Shown here in pieces: positions 16,127 through 26,046 of a stretch of DNA of 30,271 bases. Position 1 is the stretch's first letter. Each line of letters begins with the position of its first letter. Both the position numbers and the translations under genes were made by a program. Source of the DNA: a virus (Duplodnaviria > Caudoviricetes). The notes under the pieces were generated by a model. That model saw nothing but the letters and a program-made list of their open reading frames with translations. It had not been told where the DNA came from and made no database searches. The DNA is taken from positions 1 to 30,271 of IMG/VR virus record IMGVR_UViG_3300024515_000033, one strand, 5' to 3'.

Positions 16127-16492
16127 TTAGGTTTTCGTGCCGTTGATGCTGTACCACATATTGTTACTGACTGCGAAAAAAATGCTTGTATGGTCTTTGC
16201 TGATACTTGCCGAAGTTGTCTGATTGATCGTAGTAGTTGATTCGTACGGGTAGACCTTGAGCGTGCTTGCACCGCTGTTCGCAATGTAAATCACCTCCCC
16301 CATTTCTGTCGGGGGAAGTTTTACGCCTGTTCCCGATGCCACCGTGTCCACCGAATTGAACACGCTTACCAATTGCGTTGCGTCGGTTCTTGTCGATCCC
16401 GCGGCTGTGATTTCGTCTTTGCCATCCCCGCAAATTGAAACGGTGGATAATTGACTAACACCCGAACCAAGAACCCGCGAAGGTATGCTCAT
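16127..16492 (-). CDS. Ser/Thr-rich putative virion protein
   Basis: 121 aa; GVKLP...IANSG...LKVYP beta-rich pattern; ATGA overlap. Confidence 0.6.
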   Translation of the reverse strand: MSIPSRVLGSGVSQLSTVSICGDGKDEITAAGSTRTDATQLVSVFNSVDTVASGTGVKLPPTEMGEVIYIANSGASTLKVYPYESTTTINQTTSASISKDHTSIFFAVSNNMWYSINGTKT

Positions 16493-16965
16493 TTGAATCC
16501 TAAAACGCGCAAATCTCGCTGCGGAATATGAAAAAAAGGTTCTTCAAATCGCACATTCTGAAAACCTGCTTCGGTCAACAACGCACCGATTTCAGCTTTA
16601 GAGTAACACCAATGATGCCGCATCGTATCAGGTTCGGGCATTCCGAACAATGCTCGCCCAATCAAGTCATCATGCCGATAGCCCGCATTCCACAAGGCAA
16701 TCACATTATCAAGACACGGCATCTCAAGCGATAACTGACCGCCTGGCTTCAGCACCCGCCGCCATTCCTGTAAGGTTTGTTTCACCTTCAGGCGTTCGAT
16801 ATGCTCAAACAGGTGGATAGCGGAAATCTCATCGGCATGGTCATCCGGCAAGTCAAGTTTCGTTACATCGGACAGCAAATCCTGATCCCCGACGCAATCG
16901 ACGTTGATCCAGCCAGGCCATGATCGATCCCCCGCCCCTAAATGGAGTCGAATAGCGTATCCCAT
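16489..16965 (-). CDS. Class I SAM-dependent methyltransferase
   Basis: LHLGAG motif I, D.I.AIHLFEHI and WRRVLKPGG motifs. Confidence 0.88.
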   Translation of the reverse strand: MGYAIRLHLGAGDRSWPGWINVDCVGDQDLLSDVTKLDLPDDHADEISAIHLFEHIERLKVKQTLQEWRRVLKPGGQLSLEMPCLDNVIALWNAGYRHDDLIGRALFGMPEPDTMRHHWCYSKAEIGALLTEAGFQNVRFEEPFFHIPQRDLRVLGFK

Positions 16966-17774
16966 GCCGCTCCAATCTGTTCGGGGGAATAGTGCATTTG
17001 AATGTATCGCTGTCCTTCGCGTACCAAATCGTTCAATTCATGCCTGTAGGCTTGCGAAAACTGCAATCCACCCTTGACTGGCCCAAGGTAACAAAAGTGC
17101 CTAAATTCCTTGTTTATAACAATCTTACTCGCGATTACAAAGCAACCCGCCATGACTGCGTTAATGAGTCGATTGGGGCTTTTGTAGGTTTCCTCGGCAT
17201 TCGGTAACAAAACAATGTTGCTTTGGTGCAGCAGTTGTTCTTGTGCGCTGTTCGACCACGGCACGCAATCAATCAGGTCATTTTTCCCTGTGCAGTAGGT
17301 TATATCGTACTTTTTCAACATTTGTTGATAAGGCAAGATTTCTTTCAGATTGCTCTGATGCCCCATCCACAAAAATTTATTGCCGTCTGCGTGCGGTTGA
17401 CCTCGGTTTTCCCACGAATCGGGGATTACTTGGGCATCCCTTTCCGCATGGCGGCGAATTCGTCGCGCCATTTCCGGAGTCGGACACACAACTGCATCAG
17501 CTTCTCGAGCCATTTCTTCATAAAGTTTCCCTAACTGTGGATGCTCAAAATGGTCATCGCAAATATCGACCACCATTTTTACGCCTTGCCCCTTCATGTG
17601 ATGGAACAGCATTGCATCATCGGGGTGCGGCTTTGCAAAGACGGCTATATCCGCGCCTTGAGCATTCAGCCTTGATTTGTGTTTGCAATACGCCGAGGGC
17701 AGTTGCGCCCTCAATCGGTAGGATGCCATCTCAGCACCCCCGCGATGCAGCCAGGTTACGCTGCGAGCTTCCAT
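16938..17774 (-). CDS. Glycosyltransferase (GT-B/GT4-like)
   Basis: ASYRLRA, VVDICDD, ADAVVCPT, FLWMG and KSPNRLINAVMAGCFVIAS motifs. Confidence 0.75.
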   Translation of the reverse strand: MEARSVTWLHRGGAEMASYRLRAQLPSAYCKHKSRLNAQGADIAVFAKPHPDDAMLFHHMKGQGVKMVVDICDDHFEHPQLGKLYEEMAREADAVVCPTPEMARRIRRHAERDAQVIPDSWENRGQPHADGNKFLWMGHQSNLKEILPYQQMLKKYDITYCTGKNDLIDCVPWSNSAQEQLLHQSNIVLLPNAEETYKSPNRLINAVMAGCFVIASKIVINKEFRHFCYLGPVKGGLQFSQAYRHELNDLVREGQRYIQMHYSPEQIGAAWDTLFDSI

Positions 17775-18532
17775 GCGCTCCTAACCCGCAGGATTTCGGC
17801 TATCAGCCCGTCTCCCCGCGCTTCGATTGTAATGTCCGGCATCACGCTAAATACCAGTTGGAACTCGTTTGCCTGCTGCGCCATCGCCATGTTGCTTACA
17901 AACTTCTTGCGATGCGGCGCTTCACCGACATAAATTTCAATTGTCTGACCAGCTTTCTCACCCGTAAAGCGTTTCGTCCCATCCTCGCGGATGCAAGAGT
18001 CATAGCCGTACAGGATGAACTTGCGAAAGCCGAGCAAGTAACCGATGTTGATAGCCCGCAAGCCGGAAGTCGTTCCACCGCCTACTGCAAGCCTTTTGCC
18101 TATTGCCTCGCATTCAGCGTCTTGCGACCACGAATGCCAAAGCAGCACATTTTTGTCAGCAAGCCAGTCAAACATCACCGGCGGGCATCGGGATGCCACC
18201 ATGTAAACCGTGTGATCGTTCTTTTTCTGAATGCAGTTAGTCCTGTCTCGTGGGTCAAGATCAACCCACAAATCAGGTTTTATGCCGTTGTCGCATAGGA
18301 AATCGTGTGCGCCCTTGATAGCGCAGATCGTCCTGCCCTGTTCGCGTTGCTGTCGTATCTCATCAACGAACTCAGGCATTGATGGGCCGCTCCCGACCAG
18401 CACAAGTGTTCCATCGTGCCGAGCGGGAGCGGGTTGTAGCTCCGGAAGTCCCCGCGCAAGCGCAGAGCGGATGTAAGCCGAATTTTCGTCGGGCGTACCA
18501 GCAGCCCGCACAGAGATTTCCAGTTTATTCAT
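17756..18532 (-). CDS. Maf/DUF115 (MptE-like) family protein, putative glycosyltransferase
   Basis: VLVGSGPSM, GIKPDLWVDLDP and GGGTTSGLRAINIGYLLGFRKFILYGYDS motifs. Confidence 0.8.
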   Translation of the reverse strand: MNKLEISVRAAGTPDENSAYIRSALARGLPELQPAPARHDGTLVLVGSGPSMPEFVDEIRQQREQGRTICAIKGAHDFLCDNGIKPDLWVDLDPRDRTNCIQKKNDHTVYMVASRCPPVMFDWLADKNVLLWHSWSQDAECEAIGKRLAVGGGTTSGLRAINIGYLLGFRKFILYGYDSCIREDGTKRFTGEKAGQTIEIYVGEAPHRKKFVSNMAMAQQANEFQLVFSVMPDITIEARGDGLIAEILRVRSAWKLAA

Positions 18533-19011
18533 TAAGTACCTGCAACACCCGAAGCGATATGCGGATAACCAGCAATGCAGGTAACCGCAGTCGCGTTGGA
18601 AATTGAAGTGGTAGCCACAAGGCCAAACACCGCGCCACCCGAAACAACAGCGTCATCCAGCACGCCGGCAGTTGCGGTAGTGTAGAGCGGGACGTTCGGG
18701 GCGCAGTTAGCAGCCAAATTGACTTGCACCTTGCCGCCCAGTTGCACCCAACCGTAATAGCCCGAAGCAATCGAAGTCTGAGCGAAACCAATCCGCTTGC
18801 AAGTTGCTGCGAGCGTCGTGGTCATCATCTGCGCCTTTTGCGTGTCATAAACGGCGACAGCAGCATAGGCAGAGATTTCAGACAGAGCTTGGACGTACAC
18901 GGCTTGACCGCCGTCGGAAGTGTTGACCACCGTACCAGTCGTGAATTGCGAAGTCTGATCCACGTTGGTCAGGGTAACGCCTGCGGTATTACTTACGCTG
19001 AAAGTAGGCAT
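18532..19011 (-). CDS. Putative capsid decoration/cement protein
   Basis: 159 aa, beta-rich, YYGWVQLGG; directly after capsid gene with AGGAG SD. Confidence 0.65.
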   Translation of the reverse strand: MPTFSVSNTAGVTLTNVDQTSQFTTGTVVNTSDGGQAVYVQALSEISAYAAVAVYDTQKAQMMTTTLAATCKRIGFAQTSIASGYYGWVQLGGKVQVNLAANCAPNVPLYTTATAGVLDDAVVSGGAVFGLVATTSISNATAVTCIAGYPHIASGVAGT

Positions 19012-19025
19012 TTTCGTTTCTCCTA

Positions 19026-19946
19026 TTAAGCAATCAGCACGCCGCAGAACTGCGGGCCGCTGCTAGTCAAGTTACCGGCCCAACCAATCAGCTTAACGAT
19101 TGCATCTTGGTTGACTGCTTGGCGCTCGCCACCAATCGGAACAAAGTTCCGGTCAGCGTGCGGACGGAACATCAGGTACTTGGTGTTCAAGAAGAACATA
19201 TGGTTAGCGGTAGCGGAAGAACCGATACCACCATCCAGCACCACGTCCGAAGCCATACCAGCGCCAAAGTATTTCAGCGAGGCAAAGCCAGCACCGGCCA
19301 TCGACGAACCGCTATCGGTAATCCGCTGGATCGCTTGCAGCGATTGCAGATACAGACGATAGTAGTTGTTGTCAGCCACGATCAGATCAGGCTTGTCCGT
19401 TCCACGAATCAACTGAACAGCGACTGCATCCATGTATTGCTGGATGTTGGACGCCGAAACCGCAGCCGAACCGTTGCTAAGACCGGAGTACGACACCGAG
19501 CGCCAAAACGACCAAGTAGCACGATCAATGCCGCCGTAAGTGCCCGAACTCGGAGCATCAGGCACAGCAGCGCCCAAGCCGGTCAGGTTCTTACCAGCGT
19601 TACCAGTACCGTCAAGATACAGGTCACCGCTGATACGGTTAGCCAGTTGCGCCTCAGCAACGCTCATACGACCGTCCAGCAGGTCGATGATCGCCTCTTT
19701 GCCGCTGTTCTGAATCATCTCGAGGCCGCTGATCGAAACTGCCGAAGCGTATTGGGTGATCGAGAACTGCGCCGCAGAGATCGGGCTGTTTTGGGACACG
19801 TTCAGCACTTCATAGCCGCTATAGCTATTGGTGTTGTTGGTGGCGCTGTCGTTATACATAATCTCTTGCAAGATTACGTTACCGCCTGAGAAGGTCTTGA
19901 CGTTTCCGCGTTCTTTCAGTCGGCGCAGCAGGGCGTTGTTGTTTGT
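19026..19946 (-). CDS. Major capsid protein, exon 2 (spliced CDS 20730-20650 + 19946-19026, 333 aa)
   Basis: Frame open from TNNNALLRRLKERGNVKTFSGG to LIA*; lies between scaffold and decoration genes; no own SD/ATG. Confidence 0.9.
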   Translation of the reverse strand, partial: TNNNALLRRLKERGNVKTFSGGNVILQEIMYNDSATNNTNSYSGYEVLNVSQNSPISAAQFSITQYASAVSISGLEMIQNSGKEAIIDLLDGRMSVAEAQLANRISGDLYLDGTGNAGKNLTGLGAAVPDAPSSGTYGGIDRATWSFWRSVSYSGLSNGSAAVSASNIQQYMDAVAVQLIRGTDKPDLIVADNNYYRLYLQSLQAIQRITDSGSSMAGAGFASLKYFGAGMASDVVLDGGIGSSATANHMFFLNTKYLMFRPHADRNFVPIGGERQAVNQDAIVKLIGWAGNLTSSGPQFCGVLIA

Positions 19947-20649
19947 CCTTTTTGTTCATGTCCTCGGCTCTTTATCCGAAGCTCCTGCATGTTTTATTCC
20001 ATGCAGAGCAGACTATCTCATCGTAAGTTTTTCGCTTGCTTGGTGGCGCTAATTTTTGCACCGTGGCCTTTCGGCTTTCCAAGCTGCGCCAATCTACGTT
20101 TTAAGTTGCTTTTCGCGCTAGGACGGTAACCATTGGCTACTCGTGCCGCCGCTGCCTTTTTTGGAGCATCCGCAGGGGGTCTAAACGATAGTTCATTTTC
20201 GTTTAGCAACAAATCTTGCACCCTGTAATGCTTCATCCAAGACAATTCACGCTCGCGCTTTTCAATCACGGATACATCTGCTGGCATTGTTTCTAATACT
20301 TTCATTTGAAACAAACCAGCGTGATCGTTCCACGCTTCTTGCAACCGTTTAGAAGTGTGTTTACCGGATTTCAACAGGCTGCGATGCTCGCGCATCCGCT
20401 TACCTATCTTGCCCGATGTGCAGCCTACATAAGCCGCGCCGGTACTTGCATCTTCTAATCCGTAGATCGTCACCATTTGGGATTCCCCTCTTTGGTTAAT
20501 ACTTACGCTCCGCGCTCGTGGGACTTGACTTCCGTCGCATCCTAGTCGTTACACCTTCCGCAACCCTTGGTTATCCTTTGCGGCTTGGCTCGGTGTTGGC
20601 ATCTCAGCTTTTCACCGAATTCACGGAGTTTTATAACGTCTATATGTTA
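19947..20649 (-). mobile_element. Group I self-splicing intron (703 nt) in the major capsid gene
   Basis: P1 with U.G at the 5' splice site; P3, P4, P6, P7 (A-C-GACUA/UAGUCU), P8 and P9; terminal G; removal restores the reading frame. Confidence 0.92.
20018..20476 (-). CDS. Intron-encoded GIY-YIG homing endonuclease
   Basis: TIY-x10-YVG, KRMREH, ERE and LLN motifs; basic C-terminus; located in L8. Confidence 0.88.
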   Translation of the reverse strand: MVTIYGLEDASTGAAYVGCTSGKIGKRMREHRSLLKSGKHTSKRLQEAWNDHAGLFQMKVLETMPADVSVIEKRERELSWMKHYRVQDLLLNENELSFRPPADAPKKAAAARVANGYRPSAKSNLKRRLAQLGKPKGHGAKISATKQAKNLR

Positions 20650-20730
20650 AACGTTATCAGCAAGCTCACCGCTACGGCTTTGGATGTTAGTAGCGATAAT
20701 GTCGCTGATAGAACTATTGGCAAATGCCAT
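20650..20730 (-). CDS. Major capsid protein, exon 1 (27 codons)
   Basis: AGGAG SD + MAFANSSISDIIATNIQSRSGELADNV, followed by TAA as first three intron bases. Confidence 0.9.
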
Positions 20731-20750
20731 GGTTTTCTCCTATCAGGTTT

Positions 20751-21734
20751 TTAGAGTCGATCTGCCATGCTGTCGAATTGTTCGGCAAGCAGGGATCGGC
20801 GATCTTGCGCTTTGGTAGCCGTTGTCGCGCCGGGTGCGGCACTTCTGACACTAACCGCTGCCGCTCTAGCCTTCTTCGCAGCTTGATTCGCTACGACCTT
20901 TTGCTGAGTCTCAACTTGGGCTTGTCGGCTCTGTTGAACTTGCTGATAAAGGTTGTCGTCTAGGCGTAATGCTTTTTCATACGCATCCTCTAATGTCGTT
21001 GCTACACCGCTTTGCAGCAAACTAATCATTGTCGGACGCGCTTCTTCAAAATGCTCAGCCCGCATAGCGAAACTGTCAATCTCGCTTAGCAAAGACTGGT
21101 TCTGCACTTGCTCTTGTTGCTCTTTCCAACTCAACACCTCGCCCCGAACTCGATTCAGTTCCTGCTGAAGTGCTGAAATATTGGGATCAACCATCTGTTG
21201 TGGCAGTTGGCTCATGTCACCCAAATTCACACCGTACTGCTGCGCGAGTCGCATAAAAAGTTGTTGCTTTTGCTGCGGATCGCTATACCGTAATGCGTGA
21301 TCTGCTTCCATCAAGGCTTTGACAGCCTTCGGTGCATCCATCCCCAAGCCGCGGATTGTCTCCATGTAGGGGTTCAAGACCTCGTTAAACTGGTCTGCTA
21401 TGCGGGCTTTTTCCATCAGGGGCTGTACCCCTGCTTTCATTTGTTCTTCGCGCTGCCAGGCGTATTCTTTCATCCTGTCATCAGCGGTTTGCCAAACGTC
21501 GTGATAATCTTTCTTCCACGAAGCCGGTGGGCGTTTCCAAACGGGTTCTTCTACAGGCTCTTGCGCCTGCTGCATCATTGTCTGCTCGGGCTCTTTCGCT
21601 GCAAACTTGCCTTGCTCGTCGCGGGGCACATCCTCGCGGACAGGTTCGGGGGCGCTTTCGACTTGCTCAAACTGTTCCAGCAACTTTTCTCTGCGGGTAT
21701 CTTCAACTGGTGCAATTGCGTTTAGATCGCTCAT
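20751..21734 (-). CDS. Capsid scaffolding protein
   Basis: 327 aa, acidic/Gln-rich helical; RDEQGKFA and PPASW motifs; directly upstream of capsid gene. Confidence 0.75.
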   Translation of the reverse strand: MSDLNAIAPVEDTRREKLLEQFEQVESAPEPVREDVPRDEQGKFAAKEPEQTMMQQAQEPVEEPVWKRPPASWKKDYHDVWQTADDRMKEYAWQREEQMKAGVQPLMEKARIADQFNEVLNPYMETIRGLGMDAPKAVKALMEADHALRYSDPQQKQQLFMRLAQQYGVNLGDMSQLPQQMVDPNISALQQELNRVRGEVLSWKEQQEQVQNQSLLSEIDSFAMRAEHFEEARPTMISLLQSGVATTLEDAYEKALRLDDNLYQQVQQSRQAQVETQQKVVANQAAKKARAAAVSVRSAAPGATTATKAQDRRSLLAEQFDSMADRL

Positions 21735-22420: not shown

Positions 22421-24690
22421 ACAGCGATTTCAACGCCTATTGCCTTGCCATCAGGCCCGCGAATGATGCGTTTCGGCGCATTTAGCGTTTGGATCATTGA
22501 GGCGATATTGTCCATCGTTGCATTCGCCTTGTTTGCCATGTCCTCGTGCAAATTAGCGACTTGCTGCACAGCAGCAACGACGTTATCTCCAAGCTCGGCA
22601 GTCATGCGTTCGGAAGCCGCATTTGCAGCCTGTAGCAATTGCAAATCTTGCCCAGGATTGGCACTAATGCGTGCAACGGTAACTTTTGTTGCTGCGTCAA
22701 GTTCGGTTTTCCAGCGGTTGTATTGTTCTTCCATTTCCGCTTTCTGACGCTCAAACTCCATTTTCTGAGCATCCATCTGAGCACGCATCTGCTCGATTTC
22801 GATTTCGCGCTGCGCTTTTGCCTGCTCAAGTTGCAATTTAGCCTGCTCGACCTGCATATTTGCCTGCATCTTGGCCTGTTCAAGCTGCCCTTCTGCTTGC
22901 ATTTTCGCCTGTTGCAATTGCTGTTCAGCCTGCATTTTGAGCATTTCGGGGTTTTGCTGCGGTTGCGGCGGCGGTCTGTTGACGATTTGGTTTATGCCTT
23001 GGTCGATTGCACCTTCCAACTGACGCGCACCCTTGAACGAGGCAACCATAAATTTCATCGTCTCGCCAATCATGGGCACAAGTTCCGGTGCTTGCGTACC
23101 CAGCGGCAAGGCTTCGCGCAAGAATGCGCCCAATGCAGAGATAAACTCAGCCCGATCCCGCTTCATTTGCTGCTCGTCAAGCTGAACAAGTGAGTCAGCA
23201 GCAACTTCGATGCGGAAATTGCGTAGCGGTTTGTCTTTCAGCAACGCCAACGCTTGCGGGACAAGCTGTTGATCTTGTGGTTCAAGCTGATCCGCTGCCG
23301 CGTACATGAGAATCGTTTCGGGCTGGAACTTGGTGCAAATAACCTGCGCCTTGAGCCTGAGAAGCCCCGTAGCGAACAGCGCCACATCCTCCTGCATTGA
23401 GCGCAGCCGGATAGAGGCGTATTGCCCCTTAATTTGCTGTGCTGTAGCCGTCTCAGACGCAAAGGATGATCCTCGGATAATGTCCGAAAGACCTGTGATT
23501 TCGTAGATTTGGTTCTTAATCTCAGTCCGCGCCTGATAGCACTGAATCAGGGTCTGAGCAATCATGTCAATCGGCAGAAAGTCAATCGCGCCCTTCAAGC
23601 CGCCTTTCTCACCAAACGCCAGCCAGGTGTCGACCGGCAACAAGGCGTTATTCTCGCCCTCAGTCATCAGTCGCTGCAATGCGGGCTGTGAAGCGTCATA
23701 CACGCCCCTAACACGCAAAGCCTTGACGAGTCCATCAATCCTATCGGACAAAATATCAAGCTCGTTAGCCTGATCCTGATACAGCACAAAGTCAGGAACA
23801 GGAACAAGGGTGTCGCTCGTCATCGTCGCAAACAACGGTTTCGGGCAGGGGAAGAATCCTTCTAACTCTAGCGGGTCGTCGCGCTCGTCAATGATGTTAG
23901 GCATCGACTTGCTGAACCAGTAAACCTTCCCCGTTTCCTTGTCCCAGTATTCGCAAATTTTCGCGCGAGTGTGTTCCTTGGTGCTTTGCCCGTACTGTTT
24001 GAGGGTGTCAGGGCCAGCATCAAAAGGAATTTTGCTGCCGACTTCCTCACCGAAACGCTCAATCAGTGCTTCGCGGGTCATGTATACCCAACGCCAAACA
24101 GCGGTTACTTCCTCCCATGTACGCGCAACTGCATGGCCGAAGTCTTTCCAGTGAACATAGTCAACGGGAGCGCATTCGTACTCGATCTGCTCCATCGGTT
24201 CTTCACCGGCTAACGCTTGGTTTCCGGTTTCCGGCTCGTCTATGTCCTCGGTGACTTCTAGCCCGTCCTCGGGCATATCAATCGCTTGAACGTGCGGCTC
24301 ATAACGCACCCAAGACGTGCCACGCCCGCCAAGGAAGCGATCCTCGACGCAATGCTTCATCGTGCTGCGAAAGTCGGGGTAATGCTCAATCTCGTAATCC
24401 AGCGCCCGCTCAATCAGCAACGAGGCTACTCGTCCCACTTGGTCGTTGTCGCCAAAGCGACGCGATACGTCTGCTTTTGGTAGACGCGCATAGACCGCAG
24501 GAATCAACGTCTGGACGTTAGACCATAGGATGTTGAACTTGGCAGTCTCGTTTGTGTTTTGACTGCGGTTGTCGTCCCGATAACGCTTGATAATTTTCTG
24601 TGCGCGGGCTTCCCACTTCTTGAAGTCGTTATCGTAGGCTGCAACGTTATGCAGCAGTTTCTGCAAACCTGTGCTTTGTTCTTCGCTCAT
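22417..24690 (-). CDS. Portal protein (P22-like, long C-terminal coiled coil)
   Basis: 757 aa between terminase and scaffold; IYEITGLSDIIRG...ETATAQ motif; Q-rich C-terminal coil. Confidence 0.88.
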   Translation of the reverse strand: MSEEQSTGLQKLLHNVAAYDNDFKKWEARAQKIIKRYRDDNRSQNTNETAKFNILWSNVQTLIPAVYARLPKADVSRRFGDNDQVGRVASLLIERALDYEIEHYPDFRSTMKHCVEDRFLGGRGTSWVRYEPHVQAIDMPEDGLEVTEDIDEPETGNQALAGEEPMEQIEYECAPVDYVHWKDFGHAVARTWEEVTAVWRWVYMTREALIERFGEEVGSKIPFDAGPDTLKQYGQSTKEHTRAKICEYWDKETGKVYWFSKSMPNIIDERDDPLELEGFFPCPKPLFATMTSDTLVPVPDFVLYQDQANELDILSDRIDGLVKALRVRGVYDASQPALQRLMTEGENNALLPVDTWLAFGEKGGLKGAIDFLPIDMIAQTLIQCYQARTEIKNQIYEITGLSDIIRGSSFASETATAQQIKGQYASIRLRSMQEDVALFATGLLRLKAQVICTKFQPETILMYAAADQLEPQDQQLVPQALALLKDKPLRNFRIEVAADSLVQLDEQQMKRDRAEFISALGAFLREALPLGTQAPELVPMIGETMKFMVASFKGARQLEGAIDQGINQIVNRPPPQPQQNPEMLKMQAEQQLQQAKMQAEGQLEQAKMQANMQVEQAKLQLEQAKAQREIEIEQMRAQMDAQKMEFERQKAEMEEQYNRWKTELDAATKVTVARISANPGQDLQLLQAANAASERMTAELGDNVVAAVQQVANLHEDMANKANATMDNIASMIQTLNAPKRIIRGPDGKAIGVEIAV

Positions 24691-25763
24691 TTATTTTTTT
24701 CCTTGGCTAACAAGTCAGGTGCTGCTACGCCCATCGCTGCGGCTGTTGCGGCGTTTCTGCGGAATGGGTCAAAAGCGGCAAAGCGGGAACGTAATAAATC
24801 TGAATCTTGAATGGATGTAACCGTATTTTTTTGAGATTTATAAAGTTTTTCCATATAGTCTTTTGCTTCTGCAAATTGATTTCCAGTAACATTTGACCAA
24901 GTTTCATTTGGAGTTATTCCGTATTTTTCTTTTAAATATTCTTTAGCTCTAAAAATATGACTATTTGGGCCTAAATCTTTCACATTTTTAATTTCAACGC
25001 CTTTTAATCCTAAAAGGTCTTTAGCAATAATTCCAAGTTCATCGGTTGATGTTGCTGAGTTTTTGTCTAACTCCATATCAGCTAAAGAGTATCGTTTTTT
25101 TCCCGCTTTGGCGGCAAGTGTATTTGTATCTATATCAGCCCAATTTCTTCCTTTTGCATTGACTGACAACAACCCTTCTTTTTTTAAAAGTAATGGAAGG
25201 ATATTTCCTTCTCCAGATCCACTGAAATAAGTTTCTGCTACTAATGGATTGTCAGTAACAAAAACACCAGCACCAGCGGTTTTACCTTTTCCAGCAACAT
25301 TCATTGCTTGTATATCTGCATTTGTTCCGTGATAAACATTATTTAGAAACCCCATTGCTTGTGCCCGTTGCTCTGCCGTGTTGTTAGGCGGCAAACCTAG
25401 ACCACCACGCTCTACAGGCAACGCTGCACGCTGTTGGGCAAGGCGCAATGCTTCGTCTTGCGGTGCACTAAATGCGCGTTTAATAGGCGCGGCTGTTGAC
25501 GCAGCTTCCATTGCCCTATCAACATTTCTTTGCTGCACATCTTCGGGAACGCCAAACACCGAACCACGCCAAAACTTTGTACGGGCTAGATCGTTCACAG
25601 CATTGACAGGCTCTGCTGATCCGTAGCTTGAACCTGTGCCCAACGCTTTCAATGCGCCAATCAACCTGCTCGGCACTTTGGCAAGTTCTTGCGCCATCGT
25701 TGGCGGTGCAGCCGTAGCGCCCTGATACGCTAGCGCCGCCGCTATGCGCTCTTGGTCAGTCAC
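24687..25763 (-). CDS. Protein with ADP-ribosyltransferase-like (ART-PolyVal-type) domain
   Basis: VYHGT...GAGVFVTDNP.VA.TY...GNILPLLL...LRSRFAAFDP; probable GTG start at 25763. Confidence 0.65.
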   Translation of the reverse strand: MTDQERIAAALAYQGATAAPPTMAQELAKVPSRLIGALKALGTGSSYGSAEPVNAVNDLARTKFWRGSVFGVPEDVQQRNVDRAMEAASTAAPIKRAFSAPQDEALRLAQQRAALPVERGGLGLPPNNTAEQRAQAMGFLNNVYHGTNADIQAMNVAGKGKTAGAGVFVTDNPLVAETYFSGSGEGNILPLLLKKEGLLSVNAKGRNWADIDTNTLAAKAGKKRYSLADMELDKNSATSTDELGIIAKDLLGLKGVEIKNVKDLGPNSHIFRAKEYLKEKYGITPNETWSNVTGNQFAEAKDYMEKLYKSQKNTVTSIQDSDLLRSRFAAFDPFRRNAATAAAMGVAAPDLLAKEKNK

Positions 25764-26046
25764 GATTACGCTCCGAGATCGCTCTTGCCTTCGCGCGGGC
25801 ATCCTCTTTACTGGATGCGCCCCACGCCTTTAAAGCTAACGCCAATCGAGTAGGTTTACCGTTTTTTTCCATCGGGCCAGGCATATTGCCCATGCGAGCA
25901 AGAAAAGACGCGCGACGCGGGTTATCGCCAGCCTTGACGGGAGGCTTTAGCGTGCCGCCAGTCTCCGCGTGATAGCTCGCCCGTCCCTTGGCGTTCAAGC
26001 CGCCCTCGGGGTTTTTACCCTCGCTACGCGTCCATGCTGCGCTCAT
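25756..26046 (-). CDS. Small basic phage protein
   Basis: 96 aa; W.R.EGKNP.GGLN.KGR.SY...RR.SF.ARM; ATGA overlap. Confidence 0.75.
   Translation of the reverse strand: MSAAWTRSEGKNPEGGLNAKGRASYHAETGGTLKPPVKAGDNPRRASFLARMGNMPGPMEKNGKPTRLALALKAWGASSKEDARAKARAISERNRD

Follow-up and report, generated by a model that had tools for sequence, protein, structure and literature searches.

How can a small freshwater phage make its major capsid protein from a gene whose reading frame runs into a stop codon after 27 codons, and why does the interrupting element sit in a gene that the phage cannot do without? The gene lies on the minus strand of a virus record of 30,271 bases, about 90% complete, which was analysed as a whole and is called the window in the following. 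The answer that we regard as highly probable is a homing group I intron, presumably self-splicing and with a predicted nuclease activity, that is tolerated in the essential capsid gene. Taken singly, the intron of the window is ordinary and belongs to a type of selfish element already described, but it is unusually well supported by the joining of its exons in environmental RNA.

The split capsid gene and the fold of its intron

The gene consists of three parts:

20730-20650, minus strand: capsid exon 1, 81 nt or 27 codons, ending in ADNV and followed by TAA
20649-19947, minus strand: group I intron, 703 nt, with an in-frame TAA first and a terminal G last, identified by RF00028 and by the RNA joint
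19946-19026, minus strand: capsid exon 2, 306 stop-free codons plus a stop

An intron after codon 27, with TAA next and a removal of 703 nt that yields an in-frame protein of 333 aa, had been proposed in a preliminary description of this DNA, and all coordinates given there hold. The full-length capsid indeed requires splicing, as exon 1 runs into TAA and the frame is restored only by joining. Exon 2 matches positions 29-328 of the major head profile phrog_9953 (E 1.5e-98), and exon 1 supplies the start of the profile that is missing when exon 2 is taken alone. The capsid identity is confirmed by NF033394 (capsid_maj_Podo, 279.9 bits vs a cut-off of 80). Exon 1 possesses an AGGAG ribosome site at 20741-20737 and is 93-100% identical to the N-termini of intronless homologs. 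The alignment to such homologs that had been suggested shows 76 of the 80 closest IMG/VR capsid loci to be continuous through the insertion site, while three carry the same intron and one is cut off there.

The expected truncation by gene callers was borne out as well: the longest plain ORF of the capsid starts at TTG 19871 and encodes only 281 aa, so that the first 52 residues are dropped. Since several percent of the relatives are split likewise, capsid-based marker surveys are distorted.

The following elements of the ribozyme could be assigned:

20657-20633, minus strand: P1, in which the internal guide sequence pairs with the end of the exon, with U.G at the splice site
20628-22/20514-08, minus strand: P3, 5' core
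20618-13/20595-90, minus strand: P4, 5' core
20583-78/20563-58, minus strand: P6a, together with P6 and a short P5 part of the 5' core (20628-20508)
20549-43 (5' strand) and 20015-10 (3' strand), minus strand: P7, the G-binding helix
20542-20521, minus strand: P7.1-type arm with a GGAA loop, 22 nt between P7 and P3'
20507-01/20028-22, minus strand: P8, which closes the ORF-bearing loop
20006-19985 (pairs 20006-00/19991-85), minus strand: P9, 3' core
19980-19963, minus strand: P9.1 hairpin with the loop motif of the subfamily, 3' core
20015-19947, minus strand: 3' core as a whole (3' strand of P7, P9, P9.1 and terminal G)

The coordinates proposed earlier for P1, P3, P4 and P7 were confirmed, the proposed P6a, P8 and P9 were located, and the missing P2, the short P5 and the insert between P7 and P3' (the 22-nt arm) were seen as well. 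P1 is followed by P3 without a P2 in between, and the intron of the window shows no evident P9.0. RF00028 matches 20659-19985 with 35 bits (E 1.5e-5), short of the gathering score of 50, and with a long insert in the P8 loop, and it is the sole Rfam hit in the window. A faster Rfam search of the phage's own genome did not report the group I intron.

For the analysis of covariation we used 60 complete copies of the intron (47 distinct) out of 72 candidate loci plus the window, after 13 loci had been dropped as incomplete or off the boundary pattern. Among the distinct helix variants of P3, 56 of 56 cells are paired, a value reached by none of 2000 shuffles. In P4, 38 of 42 cells are paired (6 of 2000 shuffles), in P9.1 99 of 105 (0 of 2000), and P8 is 96.9% paired in 16 variants vs 61.8% after shuffling (0 of 2000). 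These shuffles ignore relatedness, and clear double changes are present, e.g. from C-G to G-C in P3. The closing stem of the P7.1-type arm also changes in concert among the relatives, as read by eye. P1 and P7 give no covariation signal because neither of them varies: the inner six pairs of P1 are invariant among 12 variants, and P7 is invariant in 47 introns.

The boundary pattern demanded a T at the exon end, and the covariation set is therefore no evidence for the U.G pair. Such evidence comes from the comparison of intron and intronless alleles. The final base of exon 1 is T in every one of the 46 intron alleles in which this exon was visible (it was out of view in 5 of the 51 same-site loci), but in only 7 of 118 intronless alleles. 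All 46 introns start with TAA or TGA. The terminal G19947 stands at the 3' splice site, exactly where the RNA joint falls. P10 reaches at best two of four pairs in the window and three to four of four in several relatives (L123, L134, L138, L140). The covarying core, the U.G in P1, the terminal G and the exact joining of the exons in RNA establish the element as a group I intron, as had been proposed.

A peripheral arm between P7 and P3' is a mark of class IA. From its 22-nt arm it is plausible that the intron is IA-like; P7.1 and P7.2 are given as class features in the available text of PMC3984707, and phage introns are described as fitting the group I subgroups poorly in that of PMC11878797. 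In the same-site introns of L136, L140 and L144, the P5 region is enlarged by a further insert of about 55 nt, and the P7 arm consists of two hairpins.

The endonuclease gene and the probable spread of the intron

The splice sites and the fold of the preliminary description stood the comparison, but it had left out the reading frame that takes up most of the intron and matches PF01541:

20476-20018, minus strand: ORF of a GIY-YIG homing endonuclease (152 aa), which occupies 459 of the 703 nt and lies within the P8 loop
20496-20472, minus strand: predicted hairpin over the ribosome site and start codon of the nuclease, -7.3 kcal/mol

The match to PF01541 reaches 26.6 bits vs a cut-off of 22.6 (E 7.6e-6), and the catalytic-domain chains of I-TevI (1MK0 and 1LN0) align with the ORF (E 1.3e-6). 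R27 and E77 fall at positions that are changed in these two chains (E77 by reading of the alignment). Both belong to the residues that are invariant in 44 of 44 nuclease relatives, together with Y5, Y16, G18, H31, H40 and N92. Ten pairwise comparisons gave dN of 0.01-0.21 vs dS of 0.17-1.7, with dN 5- to 19-fold lower in all ten. The gene is intact and under purifying selection, and its product is a predicted nuclease. The short basic tail, the putative DNA-binding part, matched no family in profile searches, and no record of a cultured phage covered 80% of the nuclease (0 of 236).

The ORF's 3' end runs through the 3' strand of P8, and its stop lies 2 nt before the 3' strand of P7; in many relatives it lies inside P7. 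Since the ORF overlaps P8 and ends at or inside P7, its translation would cross the ribozyme core. In the start-masking hairpin, the upper stem is paired in 16 of 16 variants with one swap between G-C and A-U (8 of 2000 shuffles), whereas pairing in the lower stem does not exceed that of the shuffles (130 of 2000). By analogy to I-TevI, the hairpin might limit translation of the nuclease and thereby protect splicing, so that ribosomes would leave P8 and P7 wound before the intron is removed.

In the td intron of phage T4, the ORF sits in the P6a loop. The nuclease ORF of the window differs by its position in the P8 loop, its length of 152 aa and its short basic tail, and the host gene is that of the capsid instead of thymidylate synthase. 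A further difference is that a sigma-70 scan, which is blind to phage-specific promoters, found no internal late promoter in 19800-21000 (one site vs 1.1 expected by chance). Both systems have in common a phage group I intron, a GIY-YIG ORF with a 3' end that overlaps the core, and a ribosome site masked by a hairpin, the loss of which lowers splicing in the case of I-TevI (available text of PMC2988022).

The nuclease keeps to its site. The search for relatives of the nuclease gave 67 loci, of which 65 lie in the same capsid family at the same site, three of them one codon later, and exon 2 of these nuclease-bearing capsids ranges from 100% down to about 32% identity. A complete scan of IMG/VR yielded 51 stretches with the intron at this site, vs about 1,100 intronless stretches as estimated from 7 of 64 parts. 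Accordingly, the intron frequency at the site is roughly 4-5% and about 95% of the relatives are intronless, in a comparison of counts from unequal search patterns and without dereplication. The trees of capsid and nuclease, built from 22 representatives out of 44, agree over much of their depth, so much of the inheritance may be vertical. They conflict at two loci: L131 has a capsid in the clade of the window (89% identical) and a nuclease (51%) outside the matching supported clade, and L123 combines a capsid of 55% with a nuclease of 69% identity. The intron is probably mobile by homing, a reading that is drawn from site fidelity, patchy presence and this apparent conflict of the trees.

At the same capsid site, L281 carries an intron of about 729 nt that is absent from the matches of the nuclease search; its longest ORF comprises 227 aa, possibly a different nuclease at the same intron position.

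The GIY-YIG nuclease likely spreads the intron by cutting the intron-free capsid genes of co-infecting relatives. Cleavage would take place near the DNV/TNN junction, with subsequent repair from the intron allele. The homing endonuclease is the likely reason why the intron sits in the capsid gene. We favour the view that the element is a parasite, tolerated by a gene that is conserved and essential, and not a regulator. A nuclease of only 152 aa with a known candidate target provides a ready test case.

It could also be imagined that the phage keeps the intron for its own benefit, with a nuclease that destroys the capsid gene of intronless competitors, beside homing or instead of it. The intact gene under purifying selection and the abundance of intronless targets would fit such an interference, for which there is a precedent in PhiPA3 (available text of PMC11620839). 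However, homing alone predicts purifying selection equally, and the frequency of the intron stays at roughly 4-5%. We therefore consider this benefit to be unlikely, although it deserves more credit than the other alternatives discussed below.

Exon joining in environmental RNA

The runs in which the stretch occurs are riverine metagenomes. In three of the six RNA runs that contain it (X16, X18 and X15), the region 18700-21300 was compared with assembled contigs, with 30 nt on each side of a joint. All three contain the joint between 19946 and 20650 that skips the 703 nt, and it is the sole joint that was found. The exon junction that had been predicted is thus present exactly in RNA contigs. 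The one DNA run that served as control (X13) shows no joint, and its contig crosses the intron unbroken; it has a depth of about 7 and may be the window's own source. The three RNA runs are riverine runs of 2018 and may stem from one sampling campaign.

These contigs show that the intron is removed exactly from RNA, likely through its own ribozyme activity. As is typical of group I introns, splicing would proceed in two steps at the U.G of P1 and at the terminal G, and P7 would bind the guanosine cofactor. Ribosomes that halt at the first intron codon may aid the folding. From the sequence, G19962 was also considered as the 3' splice site; it would lead to an immediate stop and was rejected, as no such joint occurs in the RNA, and the underlying repeat is absent in most relatives. 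No circular-intron joint was among the joints found in the contigs of the four runs, and contigs cannot exclude one. Contig depths were 57, 96 and 7 for the intron vs about 82, 24 and 17 for the exons; such depths cannot rank the parts, and therefore we do not claim any splicing efficiency. In X18, the depth of the intron contig (20615-19949), which does not include the 3' boundary, is about fourfold that of the exon contigs, a weak hint that the excised intron accumulates there.

The preliminary description had considered that splicing might gate virion production. In such a case the intron would be a domesticated switch, whose conditional splicing controls capsid synthesis and hence virion output. 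Every full-length capsid does pass through splicing, the RNA runs hold forms with the intron beside joined ones, and a domesticated, metabolite-controlled group I intron is known from C. difficile (available text of PMC3984707). However, the great majority of alleles at the site lack the intron (about 95%, including 76 of the 80 closest loci), the Rfam search of the window revealed no riboswitch or other family nearby, and joined forms are present in all three RNA runs. Moreover, about ten sites are invaded in the same capsid family, as repeated invasion predicts, and the comparable capsid intron of mycobacteriophage LittleE is described as efficiently spliced (available text of PMC3706429). 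With about 1,100 intronless vs 51 intron-bearing stretches and no sensor element, we do not maintain the idea of a gate, and a switch appears improbable to us.

The joined RNA could also originate from an intronless sibling phage instead of splicing. Three intronless relatives (L001, L008 and L356) are only one base off over the 60 nt, 7 of 118 intronless alleles have a T at the splice-site base, and the DNA control is a single shallow run. However, the one base by which these three closest loci differ is the splice-site base itself, with A for T. The joined 60 nt carry the T of the intron allele and are identical to the window in their flanks, no other letters occur in the exon contigs, the joined form has no exact match among 192 intronless junction loci, and the DNA run is without the joint. 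Since the joined RNA carries the T of the intron allele and no intronless locus is identical, it most likely derives from the intron allele, and a sibling origin is very improbable.

Finally, it is hardly credible that the capsid begins inside exon 2 and splicing is dispensable, since the in-frame TTG 19871 and an ATG a few codons on have no clear ribosome site in contrast to exon 1 with its AGGAG, exon 1 and the first codons of exon 2 are near-invariant in intronless homologs, the family profile spans these residues, and the join is seen in RNA.

Capsid genes as hosts of group I introns

A capsid location of the intron had been called uncommon in the preliminary description. This could not be upheld: such locations have been published already (available text of PMC3706429 and PMC7886860), and the capsid gene is the most frequent host in our sample of the subfamily. 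The 3' motif of the intron of the window occurs in an estimated 2,400 IMG/VR stretches (121 loci in 4 of 64 parts scanned). We tallied the top hits of the downstream frames of 119 motif loci, among which the major head protein ranks first with 33 (from four PHROG families), followed by tape measure and DNA polymerase (9 each), ATPase (6), terminase and thymidylate synthase (4 each), portal and dUTPase (3 each) and rIIA (2). The rest comprises four single hits, 7 unnamed families and 35 loci with none. When three loci that lack the J8/7 motif are removed and the rest is clustered at 90%, the capsid accounts for 29 of 106 clusters, vs a total of 17 for the genes of polymerase, dUTPase, thymidylate synthase and helicase/annealing functions. 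Since the motif was derived from capsid introns, a third of the hosts is unassigned and the counts are not normalised by gene abundance, this lead holds for one subfamily only.

The seeming preference of phage group I introns for nucleotide-synthesis genes and genes of DNA metabolism has been called mysterious (available text of PMC12350094). That the capsid outnumbers the nucleotide-metabolism hosts in this subfamily points to conserved targets generally and not to a link with nucleotide metabolism. Such introns seem to reside in capsid genes more often than one would expect from reviews. A more far-reaching claim, to which we give about even chances, is that a large subfamily of phage group I introns, estimated at about 2,400 stretches in IMG/VR and marked by a P9.1 loop that is fixed, resides mainly in the genes of the capsid and other virion proteins and not in those of DNA metabolism, with about ten sites in one freshwater capsid family and one GIY-YIG lineage that tracks a single site across capsids of about 35% identity. 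If this is true, the textbook preference for nucleotide-metabolism genes largely reflects which phages were cultured. The P9.1 loop (19963-19980 in the window; L148-L268) is fixed across introns of many unrelated host genes and the stem varies. The loop is probably a tertiary-contact motif.

Further insertions in the capsid family lie near codons 13, 52, 61, 68, 71, 82, 109, 150 and 309, which gives about ten sites overall; their placement was automatic and is uncertain by some codons at a few loci. Most of them are 220-330 nt long and have no long ORF, and L143 holds three insertions. Out of 16 loci that were scanned, 11 gave an Rfam group I match, with nine matches above the cut-off. The remaining five (L331, L354, L357, L062 and L322) have insertions only at codons 52, 61, about 66-68 (L357) or 309 and gave no Rfam match, so their intron calls rest on the U/G ends and the P1 helix. 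The insertions at codon 309 (L062, L115, L119, L322 and L325) are 231-248 nt long and possess a P1 of seven pairs, U/G ends and a P7-like motif, with no RF00028 match in the two that were scanned. This suggests a divergent intron type missed by Rfam. In the group I intron near capsid codon 13 of L050 (approximately 1640-2455), a long 5' insert, which resembles, by eye, an HNH-type frame on the opposite strand, precedes the ribozyme core (RF00028, 68 bits) at the 3' end.

Among the closest known systems is mycobacteriophage LittleE, with a probable group I intron near the start of the major capsid gene and a nuclease ORF, the splicing of which has been demonstrated by RT-PCR and N-terminal sequencing. 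In contrast to the window, its ORF is on the opposite strand and called HNH/LAGLIDADG-like, and host and phage type differ; the likeness is one of description only. The same paper cites a capsid intron in Tuc2009 (both from the available text of PMC3706429). In crAss-like phages, group I introns are typically found in core genes including that of the capsid (Delta group), where one capsid gene is split into five fragments (available text of PMC7886860); these are large gut phages and often recoded, whereas the phage of the window is small, comes from freshwater, uses the standard code and has a capsid of podovirus type (NF033394). The introns of Jug phages resemble ours in that metatranscriptome reads support group I splicing (37 of 76 there), but they are mostly short and ORF-less, belong to jumbo gut phages, and the hosts named are terL, nrdD and DNA polymerase (available text of PMC12880540). 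Our literature search, to which most subscription papers were closed, found no work that deals with the P9.1 loop motif or with introns of this capsid family; supplementary tables, e.g. those of PMC11835236 and PMC11878797, could already list members.

As regards the phage itself, the minus strand of the window carries, according to profile searches, genes for terminase, portal, head and tail proteins. The nearest capsids of cultured phages, those of Stenotrophomonas BUCT555, Bradyrhizobium ppBjS10J-1 and Myxococcus Mx8, are at most 52% identical. A host assignment via GTDB contigs was rejected, the 19 capsid matches being spread over bins of many unrelated taxa and resembling co-binned phage contigs. 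Between terminase and portal, a 371-aa ORF (24687-25802, minus strand) matches ART-PolyVal, the ADP-ribosyltransferase in polyvalent proteins (E 4e-7). The capsid gene and a small virion gene are directly followed downstream by three genes (16489-18532, minus strand), an MptE-like, a glycosyltransferase-like and a methyltransferase gene, which possibly form a cassette for virion or DNA modification within the structural operon.
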